A DNA stretch of 64,000 bases from Phycisphaerae bacterium. GTDB taxonomy: Bacteria > Planctomycetota > Phycisphaerae > UBA1845 > Fen-1342. Under the pieces are notes generated by a model. The model was not told where the DNA came from and did no database searches. It saw only the letters and a program-made list of their open reading frames with translations. The position numbers were made by a program, and so were the translations under genes. The stretch covers positions 1 through 64,000 of the forward strand of contig JASFQK010000017.1 in NCBI GenBank assembly GCA_050115495.1, in the 5' to 3' direction. Of the stretch, positions 31,429-39,434 are shown one piece after another (the stretch's first letter is position 1; each line of letters begins with the position of its first letter).

Positions 31429-33348
31429 ATGAAGCTGTTCGTGCCCGGTCGGATCTGTCTGTTCGGCGAGCATTCGGACTGGGCCGGGGCCTACCGGCGG
31501 ATCAACGGCGAGCTCGAACGGGGCCACACCATCATCTGCGGGACCAACCAGGGCATCTTCGCCGAGGTGCGGTCGCATCCGTCGAAGCTGGTCCTGCGGG
31601 CTACGCTGAACGACGGGCGGCGCGAGGGGCCGTGCGAACTGCCCATGGAGCCGGCCGCCCTGCTGGCCGAGGCCCAGAGCGGGGGCTTCTTCTCCTACGC
31701 CGCTGGCGTGGCCCACCAGGTGCTGACCCACTACCGCGTGGGCGGCCTGGAGATCGACAATTACCGGACAACGCTGCCCGTGAAGAAAGGGCTGTCCTCG
31801 TCGGCGGCGATCTGCGTGCTCGTGGCCCGGGCGTTCAACCGCGTCTACGACCTGAAGATGACCACGCGCGGCGAGATGGAATACGCCTACCAGGGCGAGA
31901 TCGTCACGCCGTCACGCTGCGGGCGGATGGACCAGGGCTGCGCCTTCGGCAACCGGCCGATCGAGATGGTCTTCGACGGCGACCGCATCGACGTCGTCGA
32001 GCTGCGTGTGCCCGGCAGCCTGCATTTCGTCATCGTCGATCTTCACGCCGGCAAGGACACCAAGGAGATCCTCGCCAAGCTGAATCGCTGCTACCCGTTC
32101 GCCGAGGACGACCTCCAGCGCAGCGTGCAGAAGTACCTCGGGCCGATCAACACGCGGCTCACCGGCGAAGCCGTCGCCGCCATTCGCGCCGGCGACGCCC
32201 GCCGCGTCGGCAGATTAATGCGCGAGGCACAGGCCGTCTTCGACGAGCACTTGCAGCCGGCCTGCCCGAGCCAGCTCACGGCGCCCGTCCTGCACAAGGT
32301 GCTGAGCTACGAGCCGATTCAACCCTACGTGCTCGGCGGCAAGGGCGTCGGTTCGCAGGGCGACGGCTCGGCGCAGTTCATCGTCAAGGACGAGCTCGCC
32401 CAGCAGCGCGTGATCGAGATCCTCGAACGCGACCTGAAGCTCACCTGCCTCAAGCTCGACATCGAATGCGGCCGGCGGGTACGCAGGGCGGTCATCCCGG
32501 CGGCGGGCTTCGGCACACGCCTCTTCCCCGCCAGCAAGGTGATGAAGAAGGAGATGTTCCCCGTCATCGACCGCACGGGCCGGGCCAAGCCCGTTATCCT
32601 GGCCATCGTCGAGGAGGCGCTCTCGGCGGGGATCGAGCAAATCGCCATCATCATCCAGCCGGACGATCGCGGTTTCTTCGAGGAGTTCTTCGGCCCGCCA
32701 CCCATCGAGCACTACAACAAGTTGCCGCGTGAGCAGCGCGAGTACGCCCAATACCTGCTGGACGTCGGCCGGCGGATCACCTGGCTGTCGCAGGAAAGCC
32801 AGCAGGGTTTCGGCCACGCCGTGTACTGCGCCCGTGAGTGGGTCGGCGGCGAGCCGTTCCTGCTGCTGTTGGGCGATCACCTGTACGCCGCGGACGGCGA
32901 CGAATCGTGCGCGCAGCAGATGGTGGACGCCTACGAGCGTTACGGGCACAGCGTGGTGGGGCTGAAGGTCACGGCCGCCGAGGAGGTGCAGCACTTCGGT
33001 TGCGTCGGCGGCGCGTGGCGCGAGGATGGGCGGGTGCTGTCGATCACCGAGTTCTGCGAGAAGCCGAATGCTGACTTCGCCCGCAAGCACCTGCGGGTCG
33101 AAGGGCTGGACGACGACCACTTCCTGACCGTCTTCGGGCAGTACGTCCTCGACCCGCAGATCTTCGAGCACCTGGGCGAGAACATCGTCCATAACGCCCG
33201 CGAGCAGGGCGAGTTCCAGTTGACGTCCTGCCTGGATCGCCTGCGGCAGGAGCAGGGTTTCACCGGCGTCGTCGTGCGGGGCCGGCGTTTTGACATCGGT
33301 TTGCCCGATGCCTACCGGCAGACCGTCATCGACTTTCGGCAGGCGTAG
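31429..33348 (+). CDS. Bifunctional GHMP sugar kinase / GalU-like sugar-1-phosphate nucleotidyltransferase
   Basis: PGRICLFGEHSDW, PVKKGLSSSAA, GRMDQ and GSQGDG (GHMP); AVIPAAGFGTRLFPASK, GFGHAV, LLGD, EKP and FDIG (NTP transferase). Confidence 0.88.
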   Translation: MKLFVPGRICLFGEHSDWAGAYRRINGELERGHTIICGTNQGIFAEVRSHPSKLVLRATLNDGRREGPCELPMEPAALLAEAQSGGFFSYAAGVAHQVLTHYRVGGLEIDNYRTTLPVKKGLSSSAAICVLVARAFNRVYDLKMTTRGEMEYAYQGEIVTPSRCGRMDQGCAFGNRPIEMVFDGDRIDVVELRVPGSLHFVIVDLHAGKDTKEILAKLNRCYPFAEDDLQRSVQKYLGPINTRLTGEAVAAIRAGDARRVGRLMREAQAVFDEHLQPACPSQLTAPVLHKVLSYEPIQPYVLGGKGVGSQGDGSAQFIVKDELAQQRVIEILERDLKLTCLKLDIECGRRVRRAVIPAAGFGTRLFPASKVMKKEMFPVIDRTGRAKPVILAIVEEALSAGIEQIAIIIQPDDRGFFEEFFGPPPIEHYNKLPREQREYAQYLLDVGRRITWLSQESQQGFGHAVYCAREWVGGEPFLLLLGDHLYAADGDESCAQQMVDAYERYGHSVVGLKVTAAEEVQHFGCVGGAWREDGRVLSITEFCEKPNADFARKHLRVEGLDDDHFLTVFGQYVLDPQIFEHLGENIVHNAREQGEFQLTSCLDRLRQEQGFTGVVVRGRRFDIGLPDAYRQTVIDFRQA

Positions 33349-33405
33349 GGGCGAGGCCGGCGGCCCCGTTGCCAACGCCGCTCATCTCGCCTACGCTCTG
33401 TTATG

Positions 33406-33532
33406 GCTAGGGGTGGTCCGCCGCGGCGGACATGAGATCCGGGCACGGTCGGTCCGGAGACCCTGTGAACCTGATCAGTGCCAGGCCGACGGTCGCCGGC
33501 AGTGGTGGCCGCGGTCGACTGCGTAGGGAAGC
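33406..33532 (+). promoter_or_regulatory. TPP riboswitch (THI element) with extended P5/L5
   Basis: GCTAGGGGTG...TGAGA...ACCC-TGT-GAACCTGATCAG...CTGCGTAGGGAAGC conserved blocks in order; lies upstream of a thiC-containing operon. Confidence 0.88.
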
Positions 33533-33571
33533 ACCCATGCCACACGCATTCGCATTACACGAGTTCATCCA

Positions 33572-34672
33572 ATGATTGACCCGAGCACGCTGCGGGAGCT
33601 CTTCGAACACAACGACTGGGCCCGCGACAAGCTTATGACGCTGGCCGCCGATTTGACGGATGCCCAGCTCGACCGGCCATTCGAGATGGGCGAAGGGTCG
33701 TTGCGGGCGACGTTGCGGCACTACTACGGCGCTGAGCGTATCTGGGCGCAGCATGTCCGGATGCCCGGCTGCGAGGCGTTCCCGCATTCGCGCACGCTGG
33801 AAGCGGTCAGCGACCTGCGCCACACCGCCGACATCCTCGCCGAAGTGCGCCGCCGATGGCTGGACACCCTGCCGCCCGAAGCCATGGGGCAGACCGCCAC
33901 GTACACCACGAGCAAGGGTGAGACGTACACGACGCCGCTCGGGGATATCCTGCTGCACGTGTGTAACCACGGATTCCACCACCGCGCGCAGGCCCTGAAC
34001 ATGCTGCGGCACCTGGGCGTCGAGACGCCGATGCTCGACTTTCTGCTGATGAAGCTCGAACGACCGACGATCCCGATCACGCCCACGTTCAGCGATGGGC
34101 TGCGGGCGTTGGGACTGACCGTCCCCGAACAGACCGTCGCGGCGCGGCCGCTCGACCCGGAAACCATGCGTGCCGGCCACGCCTACGGCGACATGGCCAA
34201 TGAGCGTCTGTGCCGCCTGGCCGTCGAGTTGAGCGACGAGCAGCTCGACCGCCCCTTCGAAATCGGGTTGGGCACGCTCCGCAAGACGTTGCTGCACATT
34301 CGCGACGCCGAGCAGTGGTGGTACGAGAACTGGATTAACCCTGCGCCCGTTGAGTTCGCGAAGCTGCCGCCGGAGACGTCGATAGGCGACTTGCAGCGGC
34401 TTTTCGCCGAGACGACCGAGCGGCGCGATGCCTTCGTCGAGCAGGTTCGCGGACCGGACCTGGAGCGCGTCGTGACCGCGGAGGTCCGGCCGGGCGCATG
34501 CCTGAGCTTCCGTCTGGGGGAAACCATGCTTCAGCTCTTCGGCCACGGGACGCATCACCGGGCCCAGGCGCTGAACATGCTGCGGCACCTGGGAGCCGAG
34601 GTGCCGGCACTGGATTACATCGCGTGGCTGTGGGGGCGACAGCCGGGCGTCGCGGGGAACGAAAGGAGATAA
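33572..34672 (+). CDS. DinB/YfiT-superfamily protein with two tandem DinB domains
   Basis: Twice LDRPFE(M/I)GxG(S/T)LRxTLxH...AE..W and HGxHHRAQALNMLRHLG. Confidence 0.9.
   Translation: MIDPSTLRELFEHNDWARDKLMTLAADLTDAQLDRPFEMGEGSLRATLRHYYGAERIWAQHVRMPGCEAFPHSRTLEAVSDLRHTADILAEVRRRWLDTLPPEAMGQTATYTTSKGETYTTPLGDILLHVCNHGFHHRAQALNMLRHLGVETPMLDFLLMKLERPTIPITPTFSDGLRALGLTVPEQTVAARPLDPETMRAGHAYGDMANERLCRLAVELSDEQLDRPFEIGLGTLRKTLLHIRDAEQWWYENWINPAPVEFAKLPPETSIGDLQRLFAETTERRDAFVEQVRGPDLERVVTAEVRPGACLSFRLGETMLQLFGHGTHHRAQALNMLRHLGAEVPALDYIAWLWGRQPGVAGNERR
33995..34593 (+). repeat. Intragenic direct repeat marking the DinB domain duplication
   Basis: Identical 23-mer CTGAACATGCTGCGGCACCTGGG at 33995-34017 and 34571-34593. 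Confidence 0.9.
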
Positions 34673-34675
34673 CCG

Positions 34676-36226
34676 GTGACGCAGCTTCAATCCGCCCGTC
34701 AGGGCACCATCACCCCGGAGATGGTCCGGGTCGCCGCGCGAGAAGGCGTCGCGCCCGAGTTCATCCGTGAACACGTCGCCGCCGGCCGGATCATCATCCC
34801 CGCCAACAAGCGGCACCTGGCGGGTTCGAGCGGCAAGGAACCGTCGCAGCGTGCGGAATTCACGATCGACAGCTCGGCGGTCGGCCATCCCGGCTGTACG
34901 GCGAAGGCGGCGCTATGGGTCAACCAGACGGTCGCCCAGCGGCGACAGTGGCTCGACGACGCCAACTACTGCCGCGGCGAGCGGGCGGCCAAACGGCTCG
35001 ATCCGATCGGCATCGGCCGGGCGCTGACCACCAAGATCAACGCCAATATCGGCGCATCCCCCGTTTCCAGCGACACCGCCCACGAGGTCGAGAAGCTCCG
35101 CTGGGCACAGCTCTACGGCGCCGACACGCTGATGGACCTGTCCACCGGCGGTGATCTGGATGAGTGCCGCCAGCAGATCATCGACCACAGCACGATCCCC
35201 ATCGGTACGGTGCCCATCTACAGCATGATCGTCGGCCGCACTGTCGAGGAGCTCGACCACGACACGATCCTGAAGACGATCGCCCACCAGGCCGAACAGG
35301 GTGTCGACTACGTCACAATCCACGCCGGTATCCTGCGCGAGCACCTGGGGCTGATCCGCCGGCGGGTGTGCGGGCTGGTCAGCCGCGGCGGATCGCTGCT
35401 GGCCAAGTGGATGGTGCACCATCTCCAGCAGAATCCGATGTACGAGCTGTTCGACGAGATCAGCGCGATTCTGCGGCAGTATGACGTGGCATATTCGCTG
35501 GGCGACGGGATTCGGCCGGGCTGCCTGGCGGATGCGAGCGACCCGGCGCAGATCGCCGAGCTGCACGTGCTAGGCGAGCTGGTGCAGCGGGCGCGCGAAG
35601 CGGGCGTGCAGGCGATGGTCGAAGGACCGGGCCACATCCCGCTGAACGAGGTCGCCTGGAACATGGAGACCGAGCGGGCCGTGTGCGACGACGCCCCGTT
35701 CTACGTGCTCGGACCGGTGGTCACCGACGTTTTTCCCGGCTACGACCACATCACCAGCGCGATCGGGGCGTGCGAGGCGGCGCGGGCCGGGGCGGCGATG
35801 CTGTGCTACGTCACGCCCAAGGAGCACGTGGGCCTGCCCACGGCTGAAGACGTGCAGCAGGGCTGCGTGGCGTACAAGATCGCGGCCCACGCCGGCGATA
35901 TCGCCCGCGGCATCCACGGGGCGCGGCAGTGGGACGACGACATGAGCCGGGCCCGGGCGACGCTAAACTGGACAACGCAGTTTGAGCTCGCTTTCGACGG
36001 CGATACGGCCCGCGGGCTGCGCGGGGCCGAGCTGCCCGCAGATAGCGATTATTGTGCGATGTGCGGCCGCGACTGGTGCAGCCTGCGAACCAGCCGTACC
36101 GTAATGACCAGTAGCGAGCCGGACGATCCGGATGAGCCGCCCGCGGCGGGTGGCCCACAACGGCGACGGCCGAGCTGCTACGAAGAGCGGCGCCCGGGCG
36201 CGGGCGGCAGCGCTCAGGTCACGTGA
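34676..36226 (+). CDS. thiC: Phosphomethylpyrimidine synthase
   Basis: KINANIGAS, MDLSTGG, SRGGS, EGPGH, PGYDH, LCYVTPKEH, CxxCxxxxC (CAMCGRDWC). Confidence 0.97.
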   Translation: MTQLQSARQGTITPEMVRVAAREGVAPEFIREHVAAGRIIIPANKRHLAGSSGKEPSQRAEFTIDSSAVGHPGCTAKAALWVNQTVAQRRQWLDDANYCRGERAAKRLDPIGIGRALTTKINANIGASPVSSDTAHEVEKLRWAQLYGADTLMDLSTGGDLDECRQQIIDHSTIPIGTVPIYSMIVGRTVEELDHDTILKTIAHQAEQGVDYVTIHAGILREHLGLIRRRVCGLVSRGGSLLAKWMVHHLQQNPMYELFDEISAILRQYDVAYSLGDGIRPGCLADASDPAQIAELHVLGELVQRAREAGVQAMVEGPGHIPLNEVAWNMETERAVCDDAPFYVLGPVVTDVFPGYDHITSAIGACEAARAGAAMLCYVTPKEHVGLPTAEDVQQGCVAYKIAAHAGDIARGIHGARQWDDDMSRARATLNWTTQFELAFDGDTARGLRGAELPADSDYCAMCGRDWCSLRTSRTVMTSSEPDDPDEPPAAGGPQRRRPSCYEERRPGAGGSAQVT

Positions 36227-38392: not shown

Positions 38393-39046
38393 ATGGCTGA
38401 GACGGAGCGTTTGCAGGTCAACGAAATCTTCCATTCGGTTCAGGGCGAAGGGACCCGCGTCGGAGCACGCTGCGTCTTCGTCCGGCTAACCGGCTGTCAC
38501 CTGCGTTGCAGCTATTGCGACACGCAATACGCCTTCCAGGGCGGCGATATGCTCACCACGGCTGAGATTCTCGAACGCGTGCGGGCGTACGGTTGCCCCA
38601 CGGTCGAAGTCACCGGCGGTGAGCCGCTGCTCCAGCAGCCGGTGCACCCTCTCCTGCGGCAACTGGCCGACGAATACGCGACCGTGCTGCTCGAAACCTG
38701 CGGGGCCGTGTCCATCGCCGACGTGGATCCGCGGGTTGTTCGTATTGTAGACATTAAATGCCCGGGCAGCAGCCAATCAGACCGCAACGAGTGGTCAAAC
38801 ATGGAGCTGCTCACGGCGCGGGACGAGGTCAAGTTCGTCGTGCTCAACCGCACCGATTACAACTGGGCCAAGGACGTCATCGCCCGGTATGACCTGCTAG
38901 CCCGCTGCCCGGTGCTGATCGCCCCGGTGTTCGGCGTGCTCGAACCGGTGGACCTGACGAGCTGGATTCTCGAAGACCGGCTCGACGTGCGGCTGGGCCT
39001 GCAGCTGCACAAGGTCATCTGGCCGGCGACGAAGATGGGCGTTTGA
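38393..39046 (+). CDS. queE: 7-carboxy-7-deazaguanine synthase (radical SAM)
   Basis: EIFHSVQGEG, CHLRCSYCDT, TGGEPL, QLHKVIW. Confidence 0.95.
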   Translation: MAETERLQVNEIFHSVQGEGTRVGARCVFVRLTGCHLRCSYCDTQYAFQGGDMLTTAEILERVRAYGCPTVEVTGGEPLLQQPVHPLLRQLADEYATVLLETCGAVSIADVDPRVVRIVDIKCPGSSQSDRNEWSNMELLTARDEVKFVVLNRTDYNWAKDVIARYDLLARCPVLIAPVFGVLEPVDLTSWILEDRLDVRLGLQLHKVIWPATKMGV

Positions 39047-39071
39047 GCAACGTGAGGTAGTAACGACGAAC

Positions 39072-39434
39072 ATGCGGGCGCGACTGACGAAAACCATCGA
39101 TTTTGAGGCGGCGCACTGGTTGCCGACGTTTCCCGAAGGGCACAAGTGCCGGCGGCTGCACGGCCACAGCTTTCGCGTCGAGATCGTCGTCGAGGGCGAA
39201 GTGGACGAGGCCCGCGGCTACCTGGTCGACTACGGCGAGATCAAGCGAGCCTGCGCCCCGGTGCGCGAGCAGCTCGACCACTACTGCCTCAACGAAATCC
39301 CCGGCCTCGAAAACCCCACCGCCGAAATGCTGGCCCGCTGGATCTGGCAGCAATTGCGGCCGGCCCTGCCGCTGTTGGCGGCGATCATCGTGCACGAAAC
39401 CTGCAACAGCGTTTGTGAATATCGCGGCGAGTGA
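39072..39434 (+). CDS. queD: 6-carboxy-5,6,7,8-tetrahydropterin synthase
   Basis: FEAAH, CRRLHGHS, LDH, ENPTAE, HET. Confidence 0.95.
   Translation: MRARLTKTIDFEAAHWLPTFPEGHKCRRLHGHSFRVEIVVEGEVDEARGYLVDYGEIKRACAPVREQLDHYCLNEIPGLENPTAEMLARWIWQQLRPALPLLAAIIVHETCNSVCEYRGE

Follow-up and report, generated by a model that had tools for sequence, protein, structure and literature searches.

Why should a gene for a DinB-type protein stand first behind a thiamine pyrophosphate (TPP) riboswitch? The question is raised by a locus in the genome of a Phycisphaerae bacterium (5.97 Mb, 92% complete), within a 64,000 nt stretch of its contig C17 (JASFQK010000017.1), here called the window. A TPP aptamer (33399..33546; all features of the locus are on the + strand) is followed by a gene for a tandem, double-domain DinB/YfiT-fold protein of 366 amino acids (aa) (33572..34672), and then by thiC, which encodes phosphomethylpyrimidine synthase (516 aa, 34676..36226). 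A preliminary description of the locus proposed a new thiamine-pathway enzyme, reasoning that the first gene behind such a riboswitch is generally a thiamine gene. The comparisons given below make a thiamine role doubtful. The double DinB gene is probably an inherited passenger from a cluster of detoxification genes, lodged in a slot of gene turnover between aptamer and thiC, and not a new vitamin B1 enzyme.

Distribution of the double DinB gene and the slot before thiC

All 72 genomes of the host's family were searched. They contain thiC in 65 cases and the aptamer pattern in 56 (0 for a reversed-pattern control). Full double DinB genes occur at 37 loci in 35 of the 72 genomes, and 31 of the 65 thiC genomes lack one. 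Only 13 of the 37 loci are near thiC or an aptamer: eight lie behind an aptamer (seven followed by thiC, one alone), four precede thiC in genomes without the aptamer pattern, and one is upstream of an aptamer. The remaining 24 are unlinked. In the wider phylum, aptamer loci were found in 151 genomes and 30 of these were inspected, with DinB genes recognised by BLAST to our own clusters; no DinB gene was seen behind any of the 30 aptamers, of which 23 lead straight to thiC, two to thiC about 1.3 kb further on and one to thi4, with four unresolved. Ten DinB loci from entries titled Pirellulales carry neither aptamer nor thiC in the fetched flanks (0/10 linked). Most orthologs are neither under a riboswitch nor beside thiamine genes, which speaks against the double DinB gene as a dedicated member of a TPP regulon. 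Aptamer matches at G018:C33 and G007:C1 were rejected as false because they have no 3′ strand; the match in L241 and the first in L259 were also rejected as false.

In the co-occurrence check proposed in the preliminary description, a riboswitch-first layout is found at 13 loci, and 24 of the 37 family orthologs are unlinked. Eight of the 13 are in the host's family and five outside it (L197, L207, L214, L220, L226). The survey outside the family covered the best 79 genome loci and the best 80 metagenome loci, many of the latter short or distant; all five outside cases are among the former and none among the latter. The contigs of L207 and L214 end behind the aptamer, before any thiC could show. 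The eight family proteins are 41–61% identical to each other, which together with the 13 loci indicates that the layout is not a recent single insertion. A recent passive insertion, named earlier as an outcome that would refute a thiamine role, thus does not account for the locus.

Gene counts within 3 kb of thiC (64 loci) are led by MNT genes (15) and the P0001 DinB family (14, including remnants and single-domain forms), followed by YfiT-like genes (10); the best ordinary neighbour, MBOAT, reaches 5. The enrichment of DinB near thiC is real, yet it is equalled by MNT, a class without a known thiamine role.

Family aptamers lead to thiC in 54 genomes and to thi4 in five. Genes in the slot between aptamer and thiC were labelled with our own gene caller, with BLAST clusters and with Pfam. 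In the 54 genomes the slot contains a full DinB-type gene 12 times (seven double, two single-domain, three YfiT-like), DinB remnants twice, MNT/HEPN toxin-antitoxin-type genes 14 times (11 of them without DinB), other genes seven times (DUF6398, DUF1905/OmdA, Macro and unknowns) and no called gene 22 times. Additional cargo includes RidA, rhomboid, DUF6265, DUF6429 and Fic/Doc genes, and the slot is rich in general detoxification folds (DinB, RidA, glyoxalase/VOC, cupin and hydrolases). There was no transporter among the slot genes scanned, and no integrase in the annotated loci. Six of the family's 61 HepT-like genes lie in the slot; MNT/HEPN modules are described as mobile (PMC2701414). At three loci the slot carries an MNT domain fused to an N-terminal part of about 280–300 aa (L076, 8144-9346; L135, 3304-4431; L197, 6169-7299), and that of L076 starts directly at the riboswitch ribosome site.

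Eight loci (L068, L076, L100, L108, L130, L136, L146, L162) carry a second thiC 5′ fragment (23–48 matched residues) before the full thiC, and the genes between the two are mostly MNT-HepT or other small genes with overlapping stops and starts. This suggests that the 5′ end of thiC received an insertion and that the gene was then restored. With the tandem aptamers seen within 2 kb in three genomes (G025, G063, G065), these fragments point to insertions at the aptamer-thiC junction. The situation resembles the gene-turnover hotspots beside core genes outlined in the accessible part of PMC5635113, in having fast-changing accessory genes that include toxin-antitoxin modules, and no integrase seen. 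It differs from them in that the slot lies inside a riboswitch-controlled leader, the turnover is across genera and families and not strains, and recombination at thiC would be an indirect deduction.

In other Phycisphaerae, double DinB genes are found upstream of the aptamer (L203, L249, L256, L259, L268, G047), as are single-domain forms (L305, L312, L373), with thiC behind the aptamer on the same contig in L203 and L259 and, by coordinates, in L249. At L203, L249 and L268, several DinB subfamilies form a single run that also includes RidA, SnoaL, hydrolase or methyltransferase genes. Independent recruitment of three DinB subfamilies was rejected because they occur together upstream of the aptamer at these loci. 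Of 22 family genomes, 12 have a YfiT-like paralog near thiC, and eight of these have it upstream of the aptamer. On a quick tree of DinB, the linked or unlinked state changes four times (7–14 times in 500 shuffles), and riboswitch-first versus other linked states changes five times among 14 rows, which argues that the neighbourhood was inherited from few origins and that the riboswitch moves within it. Away from thiC, L165 (G033) has a cluster in which a double DinB gene stands with ferritin-like, ADP-ribosylglycohydrolase, single DinB, RidA and hydrolase genes.

The DinB gene has been lost repeatedly, leaving remnants. Remnants of double DinB genes lie behind the aptamer in G011, G081 and G037. 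In sequencing run X4, a 915-nt contig of a close relative (depth 10, about 92% alike) links position 33650 to 34556 through 62 letters. The net loss of 843 nt is in frame; it takes away most of both DinB domains and keeps the leader and the thiC junction. In G081 the riboswitch and DinB start are duplicated: the copy before thiC has a perfect aptamer and a DinB stump, and the copy before the intact DinB gene reads UGAAA, with one base more in front of P1. Of 77 aptamers, 76 have an intact UGAGA motif, among them those before thi4 (L123, L147 and L151, corresponding to G028, G088 and G091; L124 and L125, corresponding to G006 and G048). The exception is this G081 copy, the only aptamer that leads a DinB gene without thiC. 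That a TPP riboswitch must be followed first by a thiamine gene is not upheld here, given the toxin-antitoxin genes and DUFs that share the slot, the unlinked orthologs and the repeated loss.

A passenger origin could have come about as follows. In an ancestor within the Phycisphaerae, a cluster of DinB-type and other detoxification genes would have abutted the riboswitch-thiC unit. Copying or movement of the riboswitch module may then have left part of the cluster behind the switch. The slot would have kept gaining and losing genes, and what was conserved would be an unbroken translation path to thiC, not DinB activity.

Several observations weigh against a passenger origin. The link between DinB and thiC is old and far above chance. 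At 12 of the 13 riboswitch-first loci the DinB gene is tied to the ribosome site of the aptamer, with all six histidines kept in the protein, and for the seven indirect ties the product of shuffled-spacer probabilities is 0.0017, a value overstated by the relatedness of the loci. The mutated G081 aptamer and the X4 deletion contig are single cases each, and the toxin-antitoxin cases in the slot come mostly from one shallow thiC clade and do not represent many independent events. The thiC tree mixes genera, but in an approximately unbiased test a single clade for genus g1 remained acceptable (p 0.114), so that exchange of thiC within this genus is not demonstrated. The host genome has only two DinB_2 genes, and the genomes compared are incomplete metagenome-assembled genomes.

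The riboswitch and its wiring to DinB and thiC

The aptamer has a 3-bp P1 and matches RF00059 over its full length (model 1-105). An Infernal scan, asked for in the preliminary description, returned it by cmscan with E 2e-6 and 40.2 bits, below the gathering score of 54.3. A default gathering-threshold Rfam scan of the window gives no match, and the aptamer appears only in E-value mode. The hallmarks UGAGA, CCUG-AU-CAG and CUG-CG-UAGGGA are all intact, and this is the sole TPP riboswitch match in the host genome. Among 61 relatives, 37 gave a match and only three of these were above the cut-off, so the low score is a lineage trait. It can be traced to the P5 loop, which varies from 11 to 135 nt across the relatives' aptamers, often with GC-rich palindromes, and puts most of their riboswitches under the cut-off. 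The extension in the host (33479..33518) is 40 nt long, appears as an insertion in the cmscan alignment and as a GC-rich hairpin in the predicted fold, and is very variable in relatives.

A -10-like hexamer (TAnnnT, 33392..33397), 17 nt before the P2 G-run of the aptamer, is the probable riboswitch promoter. A sigma-70 consensus scan gave no site. Hexamers of this type, beginning 15–19 nt upstream of the aptamer, were hit 56 times over 73 aptamers of relatives, a recurrence that points to a separate promoter for each aptamer. Behind the aptamer no terminator was found, and one terminator-like match inside the DinB gene is at chance level.

The sequence AGGGAAG (33525..33531), inside the aptamer 3′ strand (P4, J4/1 and P1), is Shine-Dalgarno-like and partly complementary to the 3′ end of the host 16S rRNA, which reads ...GATCACCTCCTTT. 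In relatives, the start of thiC or DinB is often 4–11 nt behind a site of this type. The aptamer GGGA ends at 33529 and the DinB ATG (33572) follows 42 nt on, close to the 40 nt reported previously; the thiC start is 1146 nt downstream of the aptamer. A 12-codon leader open reading frame (ORF) at 33537..33575 bridges the gap to DinB. Its ATG sits 7 nt after the GGGA and its TGA overlaps the DinB ATG (ATGA), a configuration that probably couples their translation. Overlapping leaders are found at five other riboswitch-DinB loci and encode unrelated peptides. Across the 13 riboswitch-first loci, DinB starts directly at the aptamer ribosome site in five, is in frame with it in one and follows an overlapping leader in six, and one has no start there. 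Leaders that overlap the thiC start with no intervening gene are present in G017, G020, G050, G067, G091 and G095.

At the other end of the DinB gene, the TAA (34670-34672) and the thiC GTG (34676) are separated by 3 nt, as was described. A strong Shine-Dalgarno of thiC's own, AAAGGAG (34662..34668), lies in the last DinB codons; local fold prediction leaves it mostly unpaired and the GTG paired. Since thiC has this site, its repression in the host would need coupling or polarity. The single operon that had been proposed is supported, as is the tie of DinB to the riboswitch ribosome site. From this arrangement DinB is probably repressed by TPP. The -10 box, aptamer, in-aptamer ribosome site and start codon may act as a module that drives a leader-DinB-thiC transcript. 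With TPP bound, AGGGAAG would be locked inside the aptamer, the leader would go untranslated and DinB would have no coupled start, and thiC output would fall through lost coupling or polarity.

Positions 33200-35764 are present without difference in one contig of one sequencing run, which may be the source of this DNA. RNA run X3 (share 0.14) gave an exact 160-nt contig (34523-34682) that reaches only 7 nt into thiC, and two further contigs inside thiC; contigs cannot show a transcript.

Direct sequestration of a ribosome site in the aptamer itself is known from actinobacterial and cyanobacterial cases; our literature search for direct Shine-Dalgarno sequestration by an aptamer found no paper. 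The leader at this locus is comparable to TPP riboswitch leaders by which thiC is controlled at translation initiation, in its full aptamer, downstream thiC, lack of an intrinsic terminator and adjacent ribosome site. It differs from known thiC leaders in its long, variable P5 extension, in having the ribosome site within the aptamer, and in feeding a coupling leader and a variable first gene. Translational control by thiamine diphosphate (ThDP) riboswitches is covered in the available portion of PMC3020362. Literature searches, which covered listings of papers and no supplements, brought up nothing on DinB genes controlled by a TPP riboswitch, nor on TPP riboswitches with a Planctomycetes thiC.

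Possible roles of the double DinB protein

Pfam family PF05163 matches the protein in two stretches (136 bits), and the two halves are 38% identical to each other. The histidine pattern noted in both domains is confirmed: H50/H133/H137 and H242/H325/H329 are invariant in 36/36 aligned homologs (671 homologs were found), and the Pfam match, alignment and structure model predict two three-histidine metal sites. The model (pLDDT 93.3, pTM 0.91) ranks DinB structures first, with 3di5 (Z 16.7) and YizA 2qe9 (Z 16.4) nearest. A profile match to Bacillus structures of the YizA/3di5 type has E 1e-6, a protein atlas search returned DinB clusters only, and Foldseek with the model gave no match at E ≤ 0.001. 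There is no match to the TenA/thiaminase (TENA_THI-4) families, and the model for YfiT-family bacillithiol transferases (NF009807) scores 29.5 bits against a cut-off of 160.

The protein resembles the S-transferase-like (STL) enzymes, judging from its sequence, and is not classifiable as a bacillithiol transferase. It shares the four-helix fold and three conserved histidines per domain with YizA/BstH of Bacillus subtilis and 3di5 of B. cereus, but differs from them in having two domains fused in one chain, in an identity of only 13–20% and in a host without a detected bacillithiol pathway. In the accessible text of PMC5815605, the three histidines are the only fully conserved residues of eight Bacillus STL enzymes; these nearest characterised relatives are metal-dependent bacillithiol transferases, and YizA/BstH has low activity on a model substrate. 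Going by its fold, the protein is most likely a fused dimer and a general metal-dependent enzyme that handles electrophiles, either as a thiol transferase or as a hydrolase.

The thiamine genes of the host are thiC, a ThiD2-ThiE fusion and a thi4 of the sulfide-dependent thiazole synthase family (G000:C1:74344) that has no riboswitch; the host genome gave no match to ThiG, ThiD or TenA. As to thiols, the same genome showed no gene for bacillithiol, glutathione synthetase or mycothiol: GshB was not found, the best BshA match reaches 95.5 against a cut-off of 273.7 and MshC is under its cut-off. One GCS2-family gene is present. BshC was found in none of the 72 family genomes.

The alternative that survives best, though we hold it rather unlikely, is damage control. 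Here the double DinB protein, with RidA, glyoxalase-like and other neighbours, would remove reactive shunt products of the ThiC radical reaction, such as phosphorylated aldehyde fragments and (formyl)aminoimidazole, and would be made when ThiC is made, being helpful and not essential. ThiC is inefficient in vitro: only 28% of the aminoimidazole ribotide (AIR) consumed becomes hydroxymethylpyrimidine (HMP) phosphate (HMP-P), and aldehyde shunt products are released (PMC11117688, available part). Among the enzyme genes near thiC in our data, DinB-type genes are the most frequent; RidA stands between thiC and DinB (or a DinB remnant) in five family genomes and in L220, the coupling is kept across the riboswitch-first loci, and the link has lasted across families. 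The ThiC proteins encoded beside DinB also belong to a clade with a long, conserved insertion. The absence of DinB from the 30 wider-phylum loci counts the other way, because it means that ThiC generally runs without it. So do the 24 unlinked orthologs, DinB-RidA clusters located away from thiC (L165), a host RidA that is on another contig than the DinB-thiC pair, and a host with no identified pathway for a thiol co-substrate. A predicted complex of ThiC (1-480) and DinB (1-358) had a score of 0.01 and a mark of 0.32, and speaks neither way. Support of ThiC by DinB, as suggested previously, is conceivable.

In its most specific form, which we regard as unlikely, the protein would be the first dedicated ThiC clean-up metalloenzyme: TPP-repressed and translationally coupled, capturing aldehyde or aminoimidazole shunt products and working with the ThiC insertion. 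It would use no thiol, or one that is not bacillithiol, mycothiol or glutathione.

Salvage, as the preliminary description proposed, would make the protein a thiol-dependent thiaminase-like or TenA-like enzyme that recycles breakdown products of thiamine or HMP. Its first position behind a TPP aptamer near thiC is that of the TenA/thiaminase salvage genes of TPP regulons, the three-histidine metal sites could support hydrolysis, and the role is free, as the host gave no TenA match. ThiD matches are found in four of the eight riboswitch-first family genomes, compared with 15 of 72 overall. DinB is, however, of a different fold and family from TenA and the thiaminases, four of the eight genomes have no ThiD match, no transporter was seen among the slot genes scanned, and the host lacks a match to the HMP kinase that salvage needs. 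ThiD is required for HMP salvage (PMC3020362, accessible text), and ThiD2 phosphorylates HMP monophosphate and not HMP, according to the available text of PMC12345177. With ThiD2 inactive on HMP and no ThiD match, salvaged HMP could not re-enter the pathway in this host. Such chemistry would lack its partners here, and we consider it improbable.

Hardly more credible is co-regulation without shared chemistry, in which low TPP would be a sign of disturbed carbon metabolism, with pyruvate, methylglyoxal and aldehydes accumulating, and general detoxification enzymes would be kept behind the switch for this reason. It would suit the abundance of detoxification folds in the slot and a riboswitch module portable enough to stand also before thi4, but these genes lie as readily upstream of the aptamer, and the slot also takes in toxin-antitoxin genes and DUFs.

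A decayed aptamer or an assembly artefact, suggested by the score under the gathering cut-off and by a leader fold no more stable than shuffles (z -0.44), can be practically dismissed, since the hallmark motifs are intact, few matching relatives pass the cut-off (3/37), and the layout recurs at 12 other loci and in the contig of an independent relative.

ThiC, neighbouring genes and wider meaning

The ThiC assignment is firm, with 600.6 bits for NF009895 (cut-off 410) and 583.4 for TIGR00190 (cut-off 460); the BzaB model remained under its cut-off. The C-terminal Fe-S cysteines (C460, C463 and C468) are invariant in 30/30 rows. Residues 48-109 (34817..35002) form a lineage-specific insertion of 62 aa with a conserved WVNQTV core. 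In the 64 ThiC sequences parsed, the insertion is 54–161 aa long in 57 and 8–12 aa in the other seven (outgroup), and DinB-linked thiC genes fall in the clade with the long form. The insertion has a hypervariable part, which in several genomes apparently consists of short tandem repeats. At L085 (G015) and L138 (G078), two family members, ThiC falls with a distant clade, on a long branch with full support, suggesting replacement of thiC.

Three other features of the window deserve mention. At 31429-33348, a galactokinase-like GHMP kinase is fused to a nucleotidyl transferase domain in a protein of 639 aa. A single ORF at 26207-27988 matches both the VipA and VipB families of the type VI secretion sheath. 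A radical SAM gene and a gene of the 6-pyruvoyl-tetrahydropterin synthase family form a tandem at 38393-39434, which we take to be a queE-queD-like pair.

If the protein were a dedicated ThiC clean-up enzyme, a large orphan superfamily would gain a natural substrate; under damage control in general, the DinB protein would gain one, and the inefficiency of ThiC a cellular answer. If the double DinB gene is a passenger, as we think probable, the locus would be a clear exception to the rule by which a gene in first place behind a riboswitch is taken for a member of the pathway. The riboswitch leader in these Phycisphaerae would then be a gene-turnover slot, in which short overlapping ORFs carry translation through to thiC.

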